A DNA stretch of 64,000 nt from Acidimicrobiales bacterium (GTDB lineage Bacteria > Actinomycetota > Acidimicrobiia > Acidimicrobiales > MedAcidi-G1): contig JAKURY010000009.1 in NCBI GenBank assembly GCA_022452145.1, forward strand, positions 18,120 to 82,119. Direction: 5' to 3'. Under the pieces are notes generated by a model. The model saw nothing but the letters and a program-made list of their open reading frames with translations. It searched no databases and was not told where the DNA came from. The translations under genes and the position numbers were made by a program. Positions 1,634 through 62,556 of this stretch are shown in pieces. Numbering within the stretch: the first letter of the stretch is position 1; each line of letters begins with the position of its first letter.

Positions 1634-3079
1634 GTGGCATGGGGTGGGGCGACCACTACGGTTTCCCCCGGCCGAACCCACCAGTGGACGGGACCGATGG
1701 CAGGCAGGCAACCGACGACAGACCTCACGTGGCTGGGCAGCAACCGGCCCCTGGCACGCGCCATCGGCCGGCCCATGGTGCGCTTCCTCGACATTGAGGC
1801 GTCTGGTGGAATCCTGCTGATGGTGGCCACCTTGGTGGCGCTGGTGTGGGCCAACTCGCCCTGGTCGGGGTCCTACTACGACTTCTGGCACACCGAGGTC
1901 CACCTGGCGTTCGGCGACGTGGTGTCACTCGACCAGGACGGGCACTCGCTCACCCTGGTGGGGTTCGTGAACGACGTCCTGATGGCCGTCTTCTTCTTCG
2001 TGGTTGGCCTCGAGATCAAGAGGGAGATGGTCACCGGCGAACTCCGGCGACCACGGGCCGCCATGCTCCCGATCGCCGCGGCCCTCGGCGGCATGGTGGT
2101 ACCCGCCCTAATCTTCCTGGCGTTCAACCGATCGGGTGCGGCCTCGACCGGCTGGGGAATCCCGATGGCCACCGACATCGCCTTCGCCGTGGGCGTGGTC
2201 TCGCTGCTGGGTCGGCGGGTGCCGACCTCGCTCAAGGTCTTCCTCCTGAGCCTGGCTATCGTCGATGACATCGGCGCCATCCTGGTGATCGCCGTCTTCT
2301 ACACCTCTGACCTCGCCATGGACTGGCTGTTCCTGGGTGTGGCGACCACGGTGGCCGTGGCGACGCTGACCCGGTTGAAGGTCTGGTACACCCCCTTCTA
2401 CATCCTGCTCGGATCGGTTCTCTGGTACGCCATGTTCAGGTCGGGGGTCCACACAACCATCGCCGGCGTGGCCATGGGCCTCCTGGCTCCGGCGAGGCCC
2501 CTGCTGGACAGGGCCGTGATGCCGCCGATCGAATTTGACCAGTTGGATGCCGAGGACCTGCGGGAGGCGAAGTTCCGCCTCAACGAGTCGGTCTCGGTGG
2601 CCTCCCGCCTGGAGCACCGGCTCCATCCCGTGACCGGTTTCGTGATCATCCCGGTGTTCGCCCTGGCCAACGCGGGAGTCGACATCAGCTGGGAGTCGCT
2701 CTCCAATGCCATGACCTCGGGCATCACCCTGGGCGTCGCCTTCGGCCTGGTGGTCGGCAAGGTCGTCGGAGTGTCGTCCTTCAGCTTTCTGGCGCTGCGC
2801 CTCGGCCTGGCCGTCTTACCGGCCGGGACGACCCGTCGGCACCTCGTCGGCATCTCGGCCATCGCCGGCATCGGGTTCACCGTCTCGCTGTTCGTCACCG
2901 GCCTGGCCTTCGATGCCGTCGCCCTCCAGAACGAGGCAAAGGTGGGCATCCTGGGAGCCTCCATTGTGGCGGCGGTGGTCGGCGTGATGATCCTTCTGGG
3001 AGCCCGGCCCGTGGTCGCCGAGGGCGACGGTGGGGGCACGGCGACGGTCGACGCAACCGGTCAGGAGCCGCTGGCATGA
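1634..3079 (+). CDS. nhaA: Na+/H+ antiporter NhaA
   Basis: LMAVFFFVVGLEIKRE and GWGIPMATDIAFAVGV signatures with about 11-12 TM segments. Start uncertain (GTG 1634 or in-frame ATG 1697). Stop overlaps the topA ATG (ATGA at 3076-3079). Confidence 0.9.
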   Translation: MAWGGATTTVSPGRTHQWTGPMAGRQPTTDLTWLGSNRPLARAIGRPMVRFLDIEASGGILLMVATLVALVWANSPWSGSYYDFWHTEVHLAFGDVVSLDQDGHSLTLVGFVNDVLMAVFFFVVGLEIKREMVTGELRRPRAAMLPIAAALGGMVVPALIFLAFNRSGAASTGWGIPMATDIAFAVGVVSLLGRRVPTSLKVFLLSLAIVDDIGAILVIAVFYTSDLAMDWLFLGVATTVAVATLTRLKVWYTPFYILLGSVLWYAMFRSGVHTTIAGVAMGLLAPARPLLDRAVMPPIEFDQLDAEDLREAKFRLNESVSVASRLEHRLHPVTGFVIIPVFALANAGVDISWESLSNAMTSGITLGVAFGLVVGKVVGVSSFSFLALRLGLAVLPAGTTRRHLVGISAIAGIGFTVSLFVTGLAFDAVALQNEAKVGILGASIVAAVVGVMILLGARPVVAEGDGGGTATVDATGQEPLA

Positions 3080-6000
3080 CCAGGGCCCTCGTCATCGTCG
3101 AGTCTCCTGCCAAGGCCAAGACCATCGCCGGCTATCTGGGCGACGGATTCGTCGTGGAGTCATCGATCGGCCACGTCCGCGACCTCCCCCAGCGGGCCTC
3201 CGATGTACCCGAGGGCCAGCGGGGCGCTCCGTGGGCCAAGTTGGGCATCGACATCGACAACGGCTTCGCGCCGTACTACGTGGTGAACAGCGACAAGAAG
3301 GAGCAGATCGCCCGGCTGCGCCGCCTCCTGAAGGAGGCCGACGAGCTGTACCTGGCCACGGATGAGGACCGGGAGGGGGAGGCCATCGCCTGGCACCTGC
3401 TGGAGCTCCTGAAGCCGACGGTGCCGGTGAAGAGGATGGTCTTCCACGAGATCACCCTGACGGCCATCACCGAGGCCCTCTCCCACACCCGTGAGGTGGA
3501 CCGCAACCTCGTTGACGCCCAGGAGACCCGACGGATTCTCGACCGGCTCTACGGTTACGAACTGTCCCCGGTCCTGTGGCGCATGATCGGCAAGGGCCTG
3601 TCAGCCGGTCGGGTGCAGAGCGTGGCCACCCGGATCGTGGTGGAGCGGGAGCGGGAGCGGATGGCGTTCCTGGCTGCCGGCTACTGGGACCTGACGGCGA
3701 CGGTCACGACCGCTGACGCCGGGTCGTTCACCACCCGTCTTGTCGCCGTCGACGGCACGCGGGTGGCGTCGGGTCGGGACTTCGGCGATGACGGCCGACC
3801 CACCCGCGACGACATGCTGGTGCTGGACGAGGCCGCGGCGGGCGCTCTCACCGCCGGCCTGGTCGGGCGCCGTCTGACGGTGGCGGGGGTCGAGCCGAAG
3901 CCCTATCGACGACGGCCTGCCGCACCCTTCACCACCTCGACCTTCCAGCAGGAGGCGGGCCGCAAATTGCGGATGTCGTCCTCGCTGGCCATGCACGCCG
4001 CCCAGGGTCTCTACCAGAAGGGCTATATCACCTACATGCGGACCGACAGCACCACGCTGTCGGACACGGCCGTGTCAGCCGCCCGGGCCGTGGCCCGTGA
4101 ACGGTTCGGTGCCGACCACCTCCCGGACACCCCACGGACGTATGCCAACAAGGTGCGCAACGCCCAGGAGGCCCACGAGGCGATCCGGCCGGCCGGCGAC
4201 CGGTTCCGCCATCCTGACGATGTGGCCGGCGAGGTGCCGACCAGCGAGGCCCGGGTCTACGAGATGATCTGGCAGCGCACCGTGGCATCCCAGATGACCG
4301 ACGTCGTGGGAGAGACGGTCCGGGTCACCCTCGCCGGTCCGGTGGGCCCAGAGGGTGCCGGCGTCGGGGGGGCGGTCACCTTTTCGGCCAGCGGCACGGT
4401 GATCAGCCATCACGGGTTCCGCCGGGTCTACCGGGAGGACGTCGACGATCCGGAGGAGGGCGACGACGAGAGGGTGCTTCCGGCGCTACAGGTGGGGGCG
4501 ACGGTCGACGTGGCCGAGGTGCTACCGGACGGCCACACGACCCAGCCGCCGGCCCGCTTCACCGAGGCCTCGCTGGTCAAGCGGATGGAGGAGTTCGGGG
4601 TGGGTCGGCCATCGACGTACGCCTCGATCATGGAGACCATCCAGCGCAACTACGTCTTCAAGAAGGGCTCGGCGCTCGTGCCGACGCTCAGTGCCTTCGC
4701 CGTGACCACCCTGCTCGAGCTCCACTTCCCCCGACTCGTGGACTACGACTTCACCGCCGCCATGGAGGAGGACCTCGACCAGATAGCCAACGGCCGAGCG
4801 GAGCGCGTGCCGTGGCTCGAAGCCTTCTACTTCGGGTCCGAGGACGACATCGGCCTGCATGCCAAGGTCACGACCCGGCTGGGCGACATCGACCCCCGCG
4901 GGGTCAGCACGGTAGAGCTCGGTGTCACGGACGACGGTGAGCTCGTGGTGGCCCGTTTCGGAAAGTTCGGACCGTACGTACAGGTGGGGGAGGACACCGC
5001 CTCGATCCCTGATGACGTGCCGCTCGACGAGCTGTCGGTCGCCCGGGCCCTCGGGTACCTGGACGCGCCGACCGATCGGGAGTTGGGGACCGACCCGGAG
5101 ACCGGCCTGGTGGTCATAGCCCGCTCGGGTCGGTTCGGGCCCTACGTGTCGCTGGGCAGGCTCCCCGACCGTCCGAAGCCCGGGTCCCCCGAGGGTCGGC
5201 TCATGTTGGTCCCGCGGAACCGCAGGGAGGTCAAGGTGGCGCTGGCGTACCTCCGCCTGGCGGCCGGGCGACTCGACTGGGCGGCAGCGAAGCAGGTGTT
5301 GAATGTCCCCAAGCGGGGAATCGGCAAGGGGGCCGTCGAACGTCTGGCCGTCGCGGTGGAGGACGGGGCGGCGCCTCTGGACGCCCTTCGCCGGGCCGAC
5401 GAGCTCGGGATCACCGGAAGGCCGTTGGCCGGCGTGCGGGCCTTCGTGGAGTTGGCCGACGACCTGGCGGTCGGGTCGGACGTCGCGCCCGACGAGGTGC
5501 TTCGTGGAGCGTTGCTGGCGTCGGGATTCCTGGCCGAGGTTCGCGACGGTGAGGGCTCCGACGCCCGACTGGCCAACCTGGACGTGCTGTTCGAGGCGGC
5601 CGGGAGCTTCGCCGACGCAGATGCGCTTCTGGACGAGCTGGATCGGCAGGCCGACGCCGACGAGGCGCCCCGCCCGAGGACGGCCTCGCTCTTCCAGACG
5701 ATGACCCTGGAGCGGATCACCTTCGAGGATGCCATGCAGCTCCTCAGCCTTCCGCGGGTGGTCGGGGTGGATCCGACCGACGGCATGGAGATAACAGTGC
5801 AGAACGGGCGCTTCGGGCCGTACCTCAGGAAGGGCTCCGACAGCCGCAGCCTGGAGTCCGAGGAGCAGCTGCTCACCATCACCCTCGACGGCTGCCTGGC
5901 CGTCCTGGCCCAGCCCAAGCGTCGTGGCAGGACGGTGGCGAGGCCACCGCTCCGGGAACTTGGGGTGGATCCGGCATCGGGCCGCACGATGATCCTCAAG

Positions 6001-6147
6001 GACGGCAACTGGGGTCCGTACGTGACCGACGGTGAACACAACGCGTCCTTGAAGCGGGGGGACTCGGTCGAGGAGCTAACCGACGAGCGAGCCGCCGAGT
6101 TGCTGGCCGAGCGGCGGATGAAGGGGCCAGCCCGGAAGCGTCGGTAA
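3076..6147 (+). CDS. topA: DNA topoisomerase I (type IA) with an unusual insertion in the C-terminal repeat region
   Basis: Toprim IVESPAKAKT and DEDREGE, active-site Tyr in GYITYMRTDS, and four C-terminal GxFGPYV/WGPYV repeats. Length 1023 aa. Confidence 0.95.
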   Translation: MTRALVIVESPAKAKTIAGYLGDGFVVESSIGHVRDLPQRASDVPEGQRGAPWAKLGIDIDNGFAPYYVVNSDKKEQIARLRRLLKEADELYLATDEDREGEAIAWHLLELLKPTVPVKRMVFHEITLTAITEALSHTREVDRNLVDAQETRRILDRLYGYELSPVLWRMIGKGLSAGRVQSVATRIVVERERERMAFLAAGYWDLTATVTTADAGSFTTRLVAVDGTRVASGRDFGDDGRPTRDDMLVLDEAAAGALTAGLVGRRLTVAGVEPKPYRRRPAAPFTTSTFQQEAGRKLRMSSSLAMHAAQGLYQKGYITYMRTDSTTLSDTAVSAARAVARERFGADHLPDTPRTYANKVRNAQEAHEAIRPAGDRFRHPDDVAGEVPTSEARVYEMIWQRTVASQMTDVVGETVRVTLAGPVGPEGAGVGGAVTFSASGTVISHHGFRRVYREDVDDPEEGDDERVLPALQVGATVDVAEVLPDGHTTQPPARFTEASLVKRMEEFGVGRPSTYASIMETIQRNYVFKKGSALVPTLSAFAVTTLLELHFPRLVDYDFTAAMEEDLDQIANGRAERVPWLEAFYFGSEDDIGLHAKVTTRLGDIDPRGVSTVELGVTDDGELVVARFGKFGPYVQVGEDTASIPDDVPLDELSVARALGYLDAPTDRELGTDPETGLVVIARSGRFGPYVSLGRLPDRPKPGSPEGRLMLVPRNRREVKVALAYLRLAAGRLDWAAAKQVLNVPKRGIGKGAVERLAVAVEDGAAPLDALRRADELGITGRPLAGVRAFVELADDLAVGSDVAPDEVLRGALLASGFLAEVRDGEGSDARLANLDVLFEAAGSFADADALLDELDRQADADEAPRPRTASLFQTMTLERITFEDAMQLLSLPRVVGVDPTDGMEITVQNGRFGPYLRKGSDSRSLESEEQLLTITLDGCLAVLAQPKRRGRTVARPPLRELGVDPASGRTMILKDGNWGPYVTDGEHNASLKRGDSVEELTDERAAELLAERRMKGPARKRR

Positions 6148-59535: not shown

Positions 59536-62500
59536 ATGCGCCCCGAAGATGCCCCGCCACCCGGTCGGCGTCCCTTCCGCGGTCCCCGGCGGCGCCGCTC
59601 CCAGAGTTCCACGAAGTTCCGCTTGCTGGTCGGTGGCGTCGTGTCGGCGTTCTTCGTCCTGCTGTTGTCGTTGCGGGGCATAGCGGGCTTCTGGACCGAC
59701 TACCTGTGGTTCGACGCCCTCGGCCACGAGGACGTGTTCGTCTCGGTGTTCGGCGCCCAGGTCGTCCTGGTGGTGTTGTTCACAGCGCTCTTCTTCGGGA
59801 TCCTGTTCGGCAACCTCACGATGGCCGATCGCCTGGCGCCGCGCATCCGACCGCCGGGGCCGGAGGAGGACCTGCTGCGCGGCTACCACATGATGGTGGG
59901 CCATCGGAGGCTGCTGGTCCGACTGGTGCTTTCCGGCCTATTCGCGCTGATCTCGGGGCTCAGCGTGTCGGGGCGCTGGCAGGAGTGGCTGCTGTTCACC
60001 AATGCCGTGGATTTCGGCATCCTCGATGCCCAGTTCGATCGCGATCTCGGCTTCTACGTCTTCCGCCTACCGTTCATGAGTTTCGTGGTCGGCTGGTTGT
60101 TCGCCACGCTGATCATCACCCTCGTCCTCACCACGATCTTCCACTACATCAACGGTGGCATCCGGCTCCAGACGATCGGCGAGCGCGTCCAGCCACAGGT
60201 CAAGGCCCACCTGTCGGTGCTGCTGGGCCTCATCGCCCTGGTGCGGGCCGGTGACTACTGGCTGGCCCGTTTCGAGTTGACCACCTCGGATCGCGGCGCC
60301 GTGGTGGGAGCCACCTACACCGACATCAAGGCGCAGTTGCCGGCCACGAACCTGCTGATCCTCATCTCCCTCTTCGCAGTGGCGCTGCTGCTGGTGAACA
60401 TCAGACGGCGGGGCTGGGTGCTGCCCACGCTGGCCGTCGGGCTGTGGGCGTTTGTGGCTCTGATCATGGGCAACATCTATCCGGCTGTCATCCAGAACCT
60501 GCGGGTGGAGCCGGCGGAGTCCGAGAAGGAACAGCCCTACATAGCCCGCAACATCACGTCCACCCGGCTGGCGTTCGGACTCGACGGGATCACCGCGGTG
60601 CAGCTCGCCGACTTCGACAACGAGATCACCGCGGCCGACCTGCGGGCCAACGGGGGGACGGTTCGCAACATCCGCATCCTCGACCCGCTGGTCGTCCAGG
60701 GCACCTTCGACCGCCTGCAGGGCGAGCGCGAGTACTACTCCTTCGCCGCCGAGATGGACACCGACCGGTACACCATCGACGGCGAGACCACCCAGGTGCT
60801 GTTGGGCACCCGTGAGTTGGACCTCAACGAGACACGATCGTGGGAGAATCAGCATGTGGCCTTCACCCACGGCTACGGCGTGGCCATGGCGCCGGTCAGC
60901 CGGGTGAAGGGTTCGGGCGACCCGGACTTCCTGGTCGGGGACCTCCCGGTGGTCATCGATCCGTCGGTCGAGGTGACCCTGGACCGGCCGCAGCTCTACG
61001 TGGGCGAGGGCCTCGGTGGCTATGCGGTGGTCGGTGCCAGCCGCTCCGAGGTGGACTTCACCGACGAGAACCAGGAGACCCAGACCGTCCGGTATGCGGA
61101 CATCGGCGGCGAGGGTGGTGTCGGCATGGGATCGATGACCCGGAGGGCGGCGTTCGCCCTGCGGTTCGGCCAGTTGGAGCCGCTGATCTCCAACTTCGTG
61201 ACCGGGGATTCACGCGTCTTCTACGTGCGCGACGTGCGACAGCGAGTGGAGAAGCTGGCTCCCTTCCTGCACTTCGACGCCGATCCGTATCCGGTGCTGA
61301 TCGATGGCCGGATCGTCTACGTGGTGGACGGGTACACGACCACCGACCGGTATCCGTATGCCCAGTTCGCCTCCACCGTGGACCTGTCGCGGTCCAGCGG
61401 CCTCCGCCACCGGTTCAACTACGTGCGGAACTCGGTGAAGGCGACAGTGGACGCATTCACCGGTGAGGTCGTGCTGTACGTGGTGGACGTAGACGATCCG
61501 CTGGTGGCTGCGTACGGAGCGGCCTTCGACGGCCTGTTCACCCCGGCGTCGGAGATGCCGCCGTCTCTGGTCGAGCACCTGAGGTACGCCGAGGACCTGT
61601 TCCGGGTCCAGACCGAGATGTGGGGTCGCTACCACGTCGAGGACACCGAGAACTTCTACCAGCGGGCCTCGGAGTGGGCGGTCTCCCAGGATCCCGGCCG
61701 GACCGGCGAGGGTGCGGCGAGCCTGGCGCTGGTCGACGATCAGGGCTTCAGGATCGGCACGGCGCGCAGGCGCATGGCGCCGTACAGGACCATGGTCGCC
61801 CTGCCCGACGGCGACGATGCCGAGTTCGTGATCATGCGGGCCTTCGTGCCGCTGGACGAGGATGACGCTCGCAAGGAACTGGCCGCGTTCATAGTGGGCC
61901 GGAGCGATGGCGACCACTACGGCGAGCTGGTGGTCTACCGCCCGCCCTCGTCGAACTTCGACGGTCCGGCACTGGCCGAGGAACGGATCCGAAACGACGA
62001 GGCGGTGGCGAGCCTCCAGACCCTGCTCAGCCAGCGCGGGTCGAACGTGCTGTTCGGCGAGCTGCTGCTCGTGCCGATCGAGAACTCGATCCTCTACGTG
62101 CGCCCGCTGTACGTGCAGGCCGAGGGCGACAACACGGTGCCCGAGCTGGAGAGGGTGATCGTGGCGGCGGGCGAGAAGGTCATCATGGCCAGCTCGCTGC
62201 AGGAGGCCCTAGAAGAGCTCACCATGTCGCGTCTGGGAACCCTCTTCTCCGGCATCGACGGTGGGGCCGTGGGCTCGGAGCCGGCCTCGACGGATCCGGG
62301 AGACGGAACCGCGTCGGGAACCGGCGGTGTGGAAGATGCGGGCGGTTCGGACGTCGAAGCCGGGGATTCCTTGCCTGACGGCGAGGTCCCCGAGGACGTG
62401 GAGTCGATCGTGGCCGAGCTCTCGCGCCTACAGCGGGCTACCGCTGTCGCTCTCTCCGAGGATCCTGCCGATTGGCGGGAGTTCGGGCTCATCCAGGCAC

Positions 62501-62556
62501 GGATGCAGGATCTGCTGGACGCCCTGCTGGACGCCCTGGAGGTGTCCGTCGACTAG
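59536..62556 (+). CDS. UPF0182-family large membrane protein
   Basis: FWTDYLWFDALGHEDVF start, about 7 TM plus a large extracytoplasmic domain, 1006 aa. The pairing with a PDZ-Lon gene matches mycobacterial synteny. Confidence 0.85.
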   Translation: MRPEDAPPPGRRPFRGPRRRRSQSSTKFRLLVGGVVSAFFVLLLSLRGIAGFWTDYLWFDALGHEDVFVSVFGAQVVLVVLFTALFFGILFGNLTMADRLAPRIRPPGPEEDLLRGYHMMVGHRRLLVRLVLSGLFALISGLSVSGRWQEWLLFTNAVDFGILDAQFDRDLGFYVFRLPFMSFVVGWLFATLIITLVLTTIFHYINGGIRLQTIGERVQPQVKAHLSVLLGLIALVRAGDYWLARFELTTSDRGAVVGATYTDIKAQLPATNLLILISLFAVALLLVNIRRRGWVLPTLAVGLWAFVALIMGNIYPAVIQNLRVEPAESEKEQPYIARNITSTRLAFGLDGITAVQLADFDNEITAADLRANGGTVRNIRILDPLVVQGTFDRLQGEREYYSFAAEMDTDRYTIDGETTQVLLGTRELDLNETRSWENQHVAFTHGYGVAMAPVSRVKGSGDPDFLVGDLPVVIDPSVEVTLDRPQLYVGEGLGGYAVVGASRSEVDFTDENQETQTVRYADIGGEGGVGMGSMTRRAAFALRFGQLEPLISNFVTGDSRVFYVRDVRQRVEKLAPFLHFDADPYPVLIDGRIVYVVDGYTTTDRYPYAQFASTVDLSRSSGLRHRFNYVRNSVKATVDAFTGEVVLYVVDVDDPLVAAYGAAFDGLFTPASEMPPSLVEHLRYAEDLFRVQTEMWGRYHVEDTENFYQRASEWAVSQDPGRTGEGAASLALVDDQGFRIGTARRRMAPYRTMVALPDGDDAEFVIMRAFVPLDEDDARKELAAFIVGRSDGDHYGELVVYRPPSSNFDGPALAEERIRNDEAVASLQTLLSQRGSNVLFGELLLVPIENSILYVRPLYVQAEGDNTVPELERVIVAAGEKVIMASSLQEALEELTMSRLGTLFSGIDGGAVGSEPASTDPGDGTASGTGGVEDAGGSDVEAGDSLPDGEVPEDVESIVAELSRLQRATAVALSEDPADWREFGLIQARMQDLLDALLDALEVSVD

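Follow-up and report, generated by a model that had tools for sequence, protein, structure and literature searches.

How does a segment that resembles part of a DNA helicase come to lie inside a C-terminal repeat of a topoisomerase I, and what could it do there? The question is raised by the topA gene of an Acidimicrobiales bacterium, contained in a stretch of 64,000 nucleotides (nt) of assembly GCA_022452145.1 (contig JAKURY010000009.1, positions 18,120 to 82,119 of the forward strand), hereafter the window. In this gene, a single unbroken open reading frame (ORF) on the forward strand (3076..6147) encodes a TopA of 1023 amino acids (aa) plus stop. An initial annotation, made from the sequence alone, had proposed that the second C-terminal repeat of this TopA is split by about 175 aa aligning, motif for motif, with the 2B subdomain of UvrD- and PcrA-like helicases. 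On the basis of the analyses reported here, it is near certain that a complete PcrA/UvrD-type 2B subdomain, typical of the superfamily 1A (SF1A) helicases, was inserted long ago in the loop between strands beta3 and beta4 of repeat D6.

A helicase 2B domain within repeat D6 of TopA

The protein matches the NCBIfam model TIGR01051 (topA_bact) over its full length, with 751.7 bits against a cut-off of 456.4, and the Pfam profile Toprim_C_rpt (194.1 bits) recognizes in it five stretches, which represent four repeats, one of them split. In particular, the N-terminal half of D6 (beta1-beta3; 5077..5157), which features the GRFGPYV motif with F687 and Y690 and aligns to residues ~725-733 of the Mycobacterium smegmatis TopA (MsmTOP1), corresponds on its own to profile positions 1-21, and the C-terminal half (beta4 and the crossing helix; 5668..5766; PRPRTASLFQTMTLERITFEDAMQLLSLPRVVG), which aligns to MsmTOP1 759-791, corresponds to positions 25-50. 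The former ends with ARSGRFGPYVSLG (aa 682-694, nt 5119-5157) and the latter starts with PRPRTASLF at aa 865 (nt 5668), the two half-repeats standing 170 aa apart. When the halves are spliced in silico, Toprim_C_rpt matches them again as a single contiguous stretch (positions 1-50 of 57, 45.6 bits, E=6.6e-12), which bears out the proposed split, and the junctions had been placed correctly to within a few bases. The large additional segment is real as well, but smaller than first estimated: compared to the insert-less orthologues, where GRFGPYVSLGE is directly followed by VTDDGPRPKTASLF, the net insertion amounts to ~165 aa (aa 695-859, nt 5158-5652).

The insert opens with an N-terminal linker (aa 695-714, 5158..5217, RLPDRPKPGSPEGRLMLVPR) that has no helicase counterpart, the helicase matches beginning only at insert residue 21, but is conserved in TopA, with R695, P697, L709, and P713 strongly conserved. 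In the AlphaFold2 (AF2) model, the linker forms a short helix along which the per-residue confidence (predicted local distance difference test, pLDDT) climbs from ~68 to >90. It is followed by the all-helical 2B-like core (aa 715-855, 5218..5640), homologous to UvrD 384-522 and PcrA 388-527 and including the GIG hairpin P745-K-R-G-I-G-K-G752 (5308..5331), equivalent to P414-R421 of Escherichia coli UvrD. An acidic C-terminal end, together with the return of the loop (aa 856-864, 5641..5667), leads back to D6, and the segment from aa 845 to 865 has a net charge of about -5.

Alignment to the M. smegmatis TopA (PDB 6pcm) maps the insertion point to the D6 beta3-beta4 loop, between GRFGPYV (beta3) and PKPRTGSLF (beta4). 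F687 and Y690 precede the insert, and T869 and S871, which correspond to MsmTOP1 T762 and S764, follow it, each of the four lying a few residues from the junctions. In MsmTOP1, D6 binds single-stranded DNA (ssDNA) by stacking of F725 and of the beta3 Tyr and through T762 and S764 on beta4 (PMC7192597), and its beta3-beta4 loop hosts a disordered, positively charged insertion of ~20 residues (PMC7192597, PMC10969213). The insertion site is a known permissive loop, the insertion that it accommodates in mycobacteria being basic and DNA-binding.

When the insert alone was compared with the PDB using HMMER, the first match was E. coli UvrD 384-522 (E=2.6e-10), followed by Deinococcus radiodurans UvrD, PcrA, and the UvrD1 of Mycobacterium tuberculosis (Mtb). 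Among the NCBIfam models, TIGR01075 (uvrD) matches the insert over profile positions 379-521 (E=1.3e-16), and the pcrA model, likewise confined to about these positions, gives E=3.3e-15. A profile built from 15 diverse TopA inserts retrieves PcrA 388-527 with E=1.2e-26, D. radiodurans UvrD with 3.5e-24, Mtb UvrD1 with 1.7e-22, E. coli UvrD with 6e-21, and Rep with 1.3e-11. The three motif pairs quoted in the initial annotation are paired by HMMER as it had described, and the GIG motif is indeed part of the insert, PKRGIGKG (aa 745-752) being aligned with PTRGIGDR of UvrD. Furthermore, the insert-only AF2 model (mean pLDDT 88; predicted TM-score 0.81) is all-helical, with a core above 90, and its top 28-29 Foldseek matches in the PDB are all SF1A helicases (UvrD, PcrA, Rep, AddA, and AdnB) aligned over 2B, the first 25 with a probability of 1.00. 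Superposed on 3lfu, the model reaches a query-normalised TM-score of 0.65, with a root mean square deviation of 3.0 A over 153 columns. Both the profile searches and the comparison of folds thus identify a genuine in-frame SF1A 2B graft, as had been proposed, in an ORF that is continuous and whose composition in the insert resembles that of the rest of the gene (GC of 0.72 and 0.69, and GC at third codon positions [GC3] of 0.87 and 0.89, respectively).

Pfam recovers the spliced repeat and stops just short of naming the helicase part: as a single sequence, the insert scores 25.0-25.3 bits with UvrD_C (PF13361), against a gathering score of 25.6. Since this score falls just below the threshold, routine annotation misses the insert; a few relatives carry a precomputed PF13361 match, marked "faint," and the databases name the proteins "type I DNA topoisomerase" only, which does not correspond to a well-annotated standard feature.

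The closest helicases are of the PcrA/UvrD1 type with Tudor domains and are 38-49% identical to the insert across the domain. Many of the helicases nearest to it (P0136, P0146, P0166, P0187, P0227, and P0254) harbor inteins (Hint/Intein_splicing) inside their motor domains. In TopA itself, the helicase motor is absent: neither PF00580 nor AAA_19 matches the protein, UvrD_C covers profile positions 109-150 only, and the full TopA fails as a uvrD helicase (TIGR01075, 57.8 bits against a cut-off of 1144, positions 379-594 only). The protein is a TopA with an embedded 2B domain, not a helicase-topoisomerase fusion. The reverse gyrase model TIGR01054 fails, too (277.8 bits against a cut-off of 471.7), its match (profile positions 867-1166) covering the topoisomerase core only.

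An apparent continuation of the helicase homology past 2B into the D6 C-terminal half and D7 (5668-5964, aa 865-963), found with TIGR01075, phmmer, and BLAST against P0140, was rejected as chance similarity, because the region is native and present in insert-less TopA proteins. The extension adds at most ~4 bits (60.0 for the insert and 57.8 for the full protein with TIGR01075; 43.7 and 47.8 with phmmer) and is sparse and gapped, as in the case of TFEDAMQLLSLPRVVG against tWQDAVQLMTLHSAKGLEF.

The comparison of 36 TopA inserts with 123 helicase 2B domains allowed us to distinguish the residues shared by both from those that have drifted. The fold core is kept in TopA and helicases alike (Y725, A770, F790, G817-Y818, L838, and F845), whereas several positions at which helicases hardly vary have drifted in TopA, namely, D721 (replaced by V), N731-P732, D734, R740, N743, and E837. 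Conservation within the insert peaks at the GIG hairpin, with P745 and G748 conserved in 100%, R747 in 97%, and G750 in 89% of the TopA representatives, and the canonical P-x-R-G-[IVL]-G motif occurs in 42 of 51 species genes, the window itself featuring PKRGIGKG. The hairpin is locally basic (+3/+4), whereas the domain as a whole is net acidic, with a median charge of -4.5.

Spread, age and constraint of the insert

The 90%-identity cluster of the window protein comprises 187 proteins; each of those listed measures 1023 aa, and they stem from independent assemblies (JGI, ENA, MGnify, and NCBI). About 95 of the best 120 full-length homologues listed carry the insert, down to 56% overall identity. 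Moreover, the scan of one genome per GTDB species returned 62 carriers, a number to be read as at least 62, as the scan relied on one junction motif. All of them are metagenome-assembled genomes (MAGs) or single-amplified genomes (SAGs) of Acidimicrobiia, with no cultured isolate among the 62, and they belong to Acidimicrobiales, Microtrichales, MedAcidi-G1 and G3, and "Ca. Microthrix" UBA bins, mostly marine. The insert is clade-wide in Acidimicrobiia, not peculiar to one genome, and the independent assemblies and the number of species refute the assembly chimera that the initial annotation had considered. The index of the assembly collection contains one insert-bearing protein in 128 blocks, from which it follows that the architecture is common in ocean metagenomes. 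A word-indexed search with the 171-aa insert alone returned four helicase fragments and missed a 100%-identical TopA (P0005); the rarity that could be inferred from it was dismissed, the homologues being recovered by full-length and exhaustive representative searches.

The length of the insert is constant (162-167 aa) while its identity drops to 30%, with the rest of the protein at 61-67%. It is the fastest-evolving part of TopA, with 30-65% identity compared to 61-91% for the N-terminal domains, and its GC3 tracks that of the host gene (r=0.98) over a GC3 range of 0.23-0.96. Nei-Gojobori estimates of the ratio of nonsynonymous to synonymous substitution rates (dN/dS) in the 40 closest pairs are ~0.10-0.33 for the insert, ~0-0.20 for the N-terminal domains, and 0.02-0.18 for the C-terminal region outside the insert; judging from these comparisons, selection on the insert is purifying, and 2-3 times more relaxed than on the rest of TopA. 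Streamlined low-GC marine genomes (MedAcidi-type, GC3 ~0.2) retain all 165 aa. A frameshift within the insert of one relative (L058, 5900-6800) was set aside as a low-quality consensus with 35 ambiguous bases and no sign of decay.

Since the junctions are colinear in all carriers, a single gain of the insert is the simplest account. A related group of orthologues of 864 aa is devoid of the insert. In a first neighbor-joining tree, this group was nested within the insert clade, which would indicate a secondary loss, but its position hinged on two chimera-like sequences, P0027 and P0029. Without them, the group is nested within the insert clade in 52 of 100 bootstraps, and it may either have lost the insert or represent a sister lineage. 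The two sequences show discordant N- and C-terminal identities to the window protein (80/90% for P0027 and 76/91% for P0029), P0027 being nearly identical to P0006 from approximately alignment column 300 on, and they represent chimeric assemblies or else topA genes that have recombined. One MAG, JAKURX01 (ALOHA_A2.5_66), holds two insert-bearing topA loci (L004 and L022, 62% and 45% identical to the query region), which probably reflects a mixed bin and not paralogy.

The N-terminal domains D1-D4 (aa 1-600, 3076..4875) match Toprim (82.2 bits, aa 5-126) and Topoisom_bac (355.6 bits, aa 141-579) and contain the TOPRIM acidic motif D96-E97-D98 and, by alignment, the YMRTDS segment (Y320), which is the site of the catalytic tyrosine in type IA enzymes. 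D96-E97-D98 and Y320-M-R-T-D-S are invariant across 18 aligned TopA sequences, and the catalytic domains are apparently intact. The G(R/K)(Y/F)GPY motifs of the repeats are located at aa 628-634, 685-691, 911-916, and 977-983. Repeat D5 (Topo_C_Rpt, FGKFGPYV; 4909..5055) was assigned by Pfam and by alignment to MsmTOP1 6pcm, and Pfam and alignment also place D7 (GRFGPYL), D8 (GNWGPYV), the basic D7-D8 linker, and the basic but very short tail MKGPARKRR downstream of D6 (5767..6144).

The neighborhood of topA (sigma-HAD-STAS-antisigma-(nhaA)-topA-MFS-tmk-holB) is kept in distant carriers and in the insert-less 864-aa orthologue. Because the topA-tmk-holB block is conserved with and without the insert, the gene is, with near certainty, the orthologous single-copy housekeeping topoisomerase I and not a paralogue; the complete ORF, the TIGR01051 and Pfam matches, and the conserved nhaA-topA-MFS-tmk-holB synteny define it in the window. 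Upstream, nhaA (1634..3079) ends in a stop codon that overlaps the start of topA at 3076-3079 (ATGA), an arrangement that suggests translational coupling. nhaA also adjoins topA in distant carriers, with a 1-nt overlap in L065 and a 30-nt gap in L063, and is absent 5' of the insert-less 864-aa orthologue (L067). Elsewhere in the window, a 1006-aa ORF (59536-62556) encodes a full-length UPF0182 family protein (812.7 bits), which has no relation to the topA insert.

Possible roles of the grafted domain

The identity of the domain rests on the comparisons above, and we infer that it could alter the engagement of TopA with DNA or with a partner, as the initial annotation had suggested. The first possibility concerns DNA. 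In the monomer-DNA complexes of UvrD, PcrA, and UvrD1, the GIG motif of 2B contacts duplex DNA (PMC11912403, PMC13238157), and in mycobacterial TopA, basic C-terminal stretches bind the non-scissile DNA and are required for strand passage (PMC3753633). It is possible to hypothesize that the grafted 2B acts as a handle on D6 for duplex DNA or for single-strand/double-strand (ss/ds) junctions. We favor this reading, tentatively and with confidence a little under even, because the insert lies at the ssDNA-binding face, the basic hairpin is retained, and there is an analogy with the basic loop and tails of mycobacterial TopA. According to this proposal, D5-D8 would capture the single-stranded T-strand via F687 and Y690 on beta3 and T869 and S871 on beta4, while the basic hairpin (PKRGIGKG), being retained and known to contact duplex DNA in helicase monomers, would grip the adjacent duplex as a folded, sequence-independent handle. 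TopA could thereby be held at the point where an underwound bubble passes from single- to double-stranded DNA, for instance, in the wake of RNA polymerase or at an R-loop, and the handle could help to hold the non-scissile DNA through strand passage. In mycobacterial TopA, the same job would be done by the disordered basic insertion of the same loop and by the long lysine-rich tails. The C-terminal tails (6121-6144 in the window) are of 0-15 aa in insert-bearing TopA proteins and lysine-rich and of 40-70 aa in insert-less outgroups; the short tails may reflect a trade-off with the insert or merely a trait of the clade.

Several observations weigh against a role in duplex binding. The hairpin is degenerate (PGSGIAKG, PARGVSAA) in 9 of the 51 genes, belonging to two subclades that include the nearest relatives of the window; the domain (median -4.5) and its C-terminal segment (-5) are acidic; and the 864-aa orthologues, with the same synteny, have neither the insert nor a compensating basic loop. 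In addition, the GIG glycines may be conserved for folding alone, and the contact of the helicase 2B with the duplex needs a geometry set by 1A, 2A, and 1B, which are absent in TopA.

The grafted 2B could instead serve for docking, through 2B-2B contacts that would form a TopA dimer or a heterodimer with the 2B of the cell's PcrA/UvrD1. In the heterodimer case, the helicase might be coupled to TopA, and maybe activated by it, at R-loops or at underwound DNA associated with transcription. Dimers of UvrD1 and of E. coli UvrD form through 2B-2B contacts, which compete with the binding of 2B to the duplex and render the helicase active, the GIG-duplex contact belonging to autoinhibited monomers, and the partners MutL, PriC, and RepD act through 2B (PMC11912403, PMC13238157). 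Moreover, PcrA/UvrD suppress R-loops at RNA polymerase (PMC8318588), which overlaps the role of TopA. The PcrA/UvrD1-type, Tudor-bearing nearest helicases, 38-49% identical to the insert, agree with this possibility, as does the rate of evolution of the insert, 2-3 times that of the rest of TopA, which could occur at a co-evolving interface. However, the equivalents of the UvrD1 interface (the post-GIG helix at ~aa 757-764 and the loop at ~aa 779-784) are poorly conserved in TopA, the position equivalent to C451 lacks a cysteine, and no helicase gene occurs near topA in the window or in the 67 loci of relatives. On balance, docking through 2B appears rather unlikely. More doubtful still is its most elaborate form, in which the TopA 2B would pair with that of PcrA/UvrD1 at the conserved 2B-2B dimer interface, relieve its autoinhibition, and give rise to a transient helicase-topoisomerase IA machine at bubbles and R-loops; if true, this would represent the SF1A equivalent of RecQ-Topo III or of reverse gyrase, built from a borrowed regulatory domain.

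Alternatively, a self-contained domain with close termini may have landed in a permissive loop and added little or nothing to TopA function, being kept mainly because its deletion or unfolding would harm D6. The tolerance of the D6 beta3-beta4 loop for a disordered insertion in mycobacteria, the low identity (30-65%, compared to 61-91% for the N-terminal domains) and the dN/dS 2-3 times higher than in the rest of TopA, the orthologue group that cleanly lacks the insert at the same locus, and the decay of the GIG hairpin in two subclades are all consistent with such a passenger domain. Nevertheless, dN/dS stays at ~0.2 over a very wide divergence, a length of 162-167 aa is maintained across GC3 values of 0.23-0.96 and 62 species, and even the streamlined low-GC MedAcidi-type genomes keep all 165 aa. 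Furthermore, since the hairpin and the TopA-specific linker persist while other residues invariant in helicases drift, the pattern of constraint suggests that a function of the surface has been retained, beyond the mere upkeep of the fold. A tolerated passenger seems to us rather unlikely, to about the same degree as docking.

Finally, an artefact or mobile remnant (an assembly chimera, an annotation fusion, an intein, or an insertion-element remnant) is extremely improbable, since the sub-threshold single-sequence Pfam score and the exclusive occurrence in MAGs or SAGs that could speak for it are opposed by the 187 members of the protein's own 90% cluster, by more than 100 independent contigs of relatives, and by colinear junctions, fully ameliorated composition, and purifying selection. 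An intein was rejected, there being no Hint/intein Pfam match and no Cys, Ser, or Thr at the junction residues (R695 and D860/P865), and no direct or inverted repeats of note flank the insert.

A nested accessory domain among type IA topoisomerases

In comparison with the 2B domains of SF1A helicases (the 378-550 region of E. coli UvrD, Geobacillus stearothermophilus PcrA, Mtb UvrD1, Rep, AddA, and AdnB), the TopA insert is homologous in sequence and shares the same all-helical fold. Retained features are the Y-L helix, the P-x-R-G-I-G hairpin, the SGY motif, and the R-x-x-N-L helix and, as in the helicases, the domain is an insertion joined to its host at two adjacent termini. Different from the helicases, where the host is the RecA-like 2A, the domain sits here in a small beta-sheet repeat that binds ssDNA, and TopA is devoid of 1A, 1B, 2A, and Tudor domains. 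The equivalents of D721, N731-P732, R740, N743, and E837 are unconserved, and the domain is preceded by a new conserved Pro-rich linker.

With respect to the mycobacterial enzymes MsmTOP1 and MtbTOP1, the architecture is the same, with four repeats (D5-D8) and the same insertion point between beta3 and beta4 of D6 (PMC7192597, PMC10969213), and the ssDNA-stacking residues are retained. However, the mycobacterial insertion is of ~20 residues, basic, and disordered, whereas the one described here comprises ~165 residues, is folded, and combines a net acidic charge with a single basic hairpin, and the long basic C-terminal tail of mycobacterial TopA contrasts with the 0-15 residues of this clade.

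Other lineage-specific modules on the type IA core are represented by the SWIB domain of Chlamydia TopA, the lysine repeats of Streptomyces, and the Zn-ribbon domains, and such accessory modules presumably tune the engagement of TopA with DNA or partners. Those variants are terminal fusions or tandem repeats, whereas the TopA 2B is nested inside a repeat and derived from a helicase. Reverse gyrase and the RecQ/Sgs1/BLM-Topo III systems likewise link helicase-derived parts to a type IA topoisomerase, a parallel that would be relevant if docking holds true, but they do so with complete SF2 ATPase motors, and here only an SF1A regulatory subdomain, with no ATPase, is present. Our literature search found no description of a TopA-2B or TopA-UvrD architecture, nor of any helicase-derived module in a type IA topoisomerase, and two reviews devoted to the C-terminal diversity of TopA do not mention UvrD, helicase, or PcrA.

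The accessory domain nested in this type IA topoisomerase is novel, a folded module within a Topo_C_Rpt, and the domain graft is clean, ancient, and abundant, its carriers including abundant marine Acidimicrobiia (MedAcidi-type). For topoisomerases, the nested 2B represents a new kind of C-terminal accessory module, occupying the loop that holds, in mycobacterial TopA, a basic stretch such as those needed for strand passage, and it leads to the prediction of a junction-anchoring or helicase-coupling TopA. For helicases, the role of 2B is under current re-evaluation, with duplex binding, dimerisation, and partner binding under consideration (PMC13238157, PMC11912403). This clade offers a natural case in which a 2B domain has long been kept without a motor domain, and it follows that whatever 2B still does here is a property of 2B itself.

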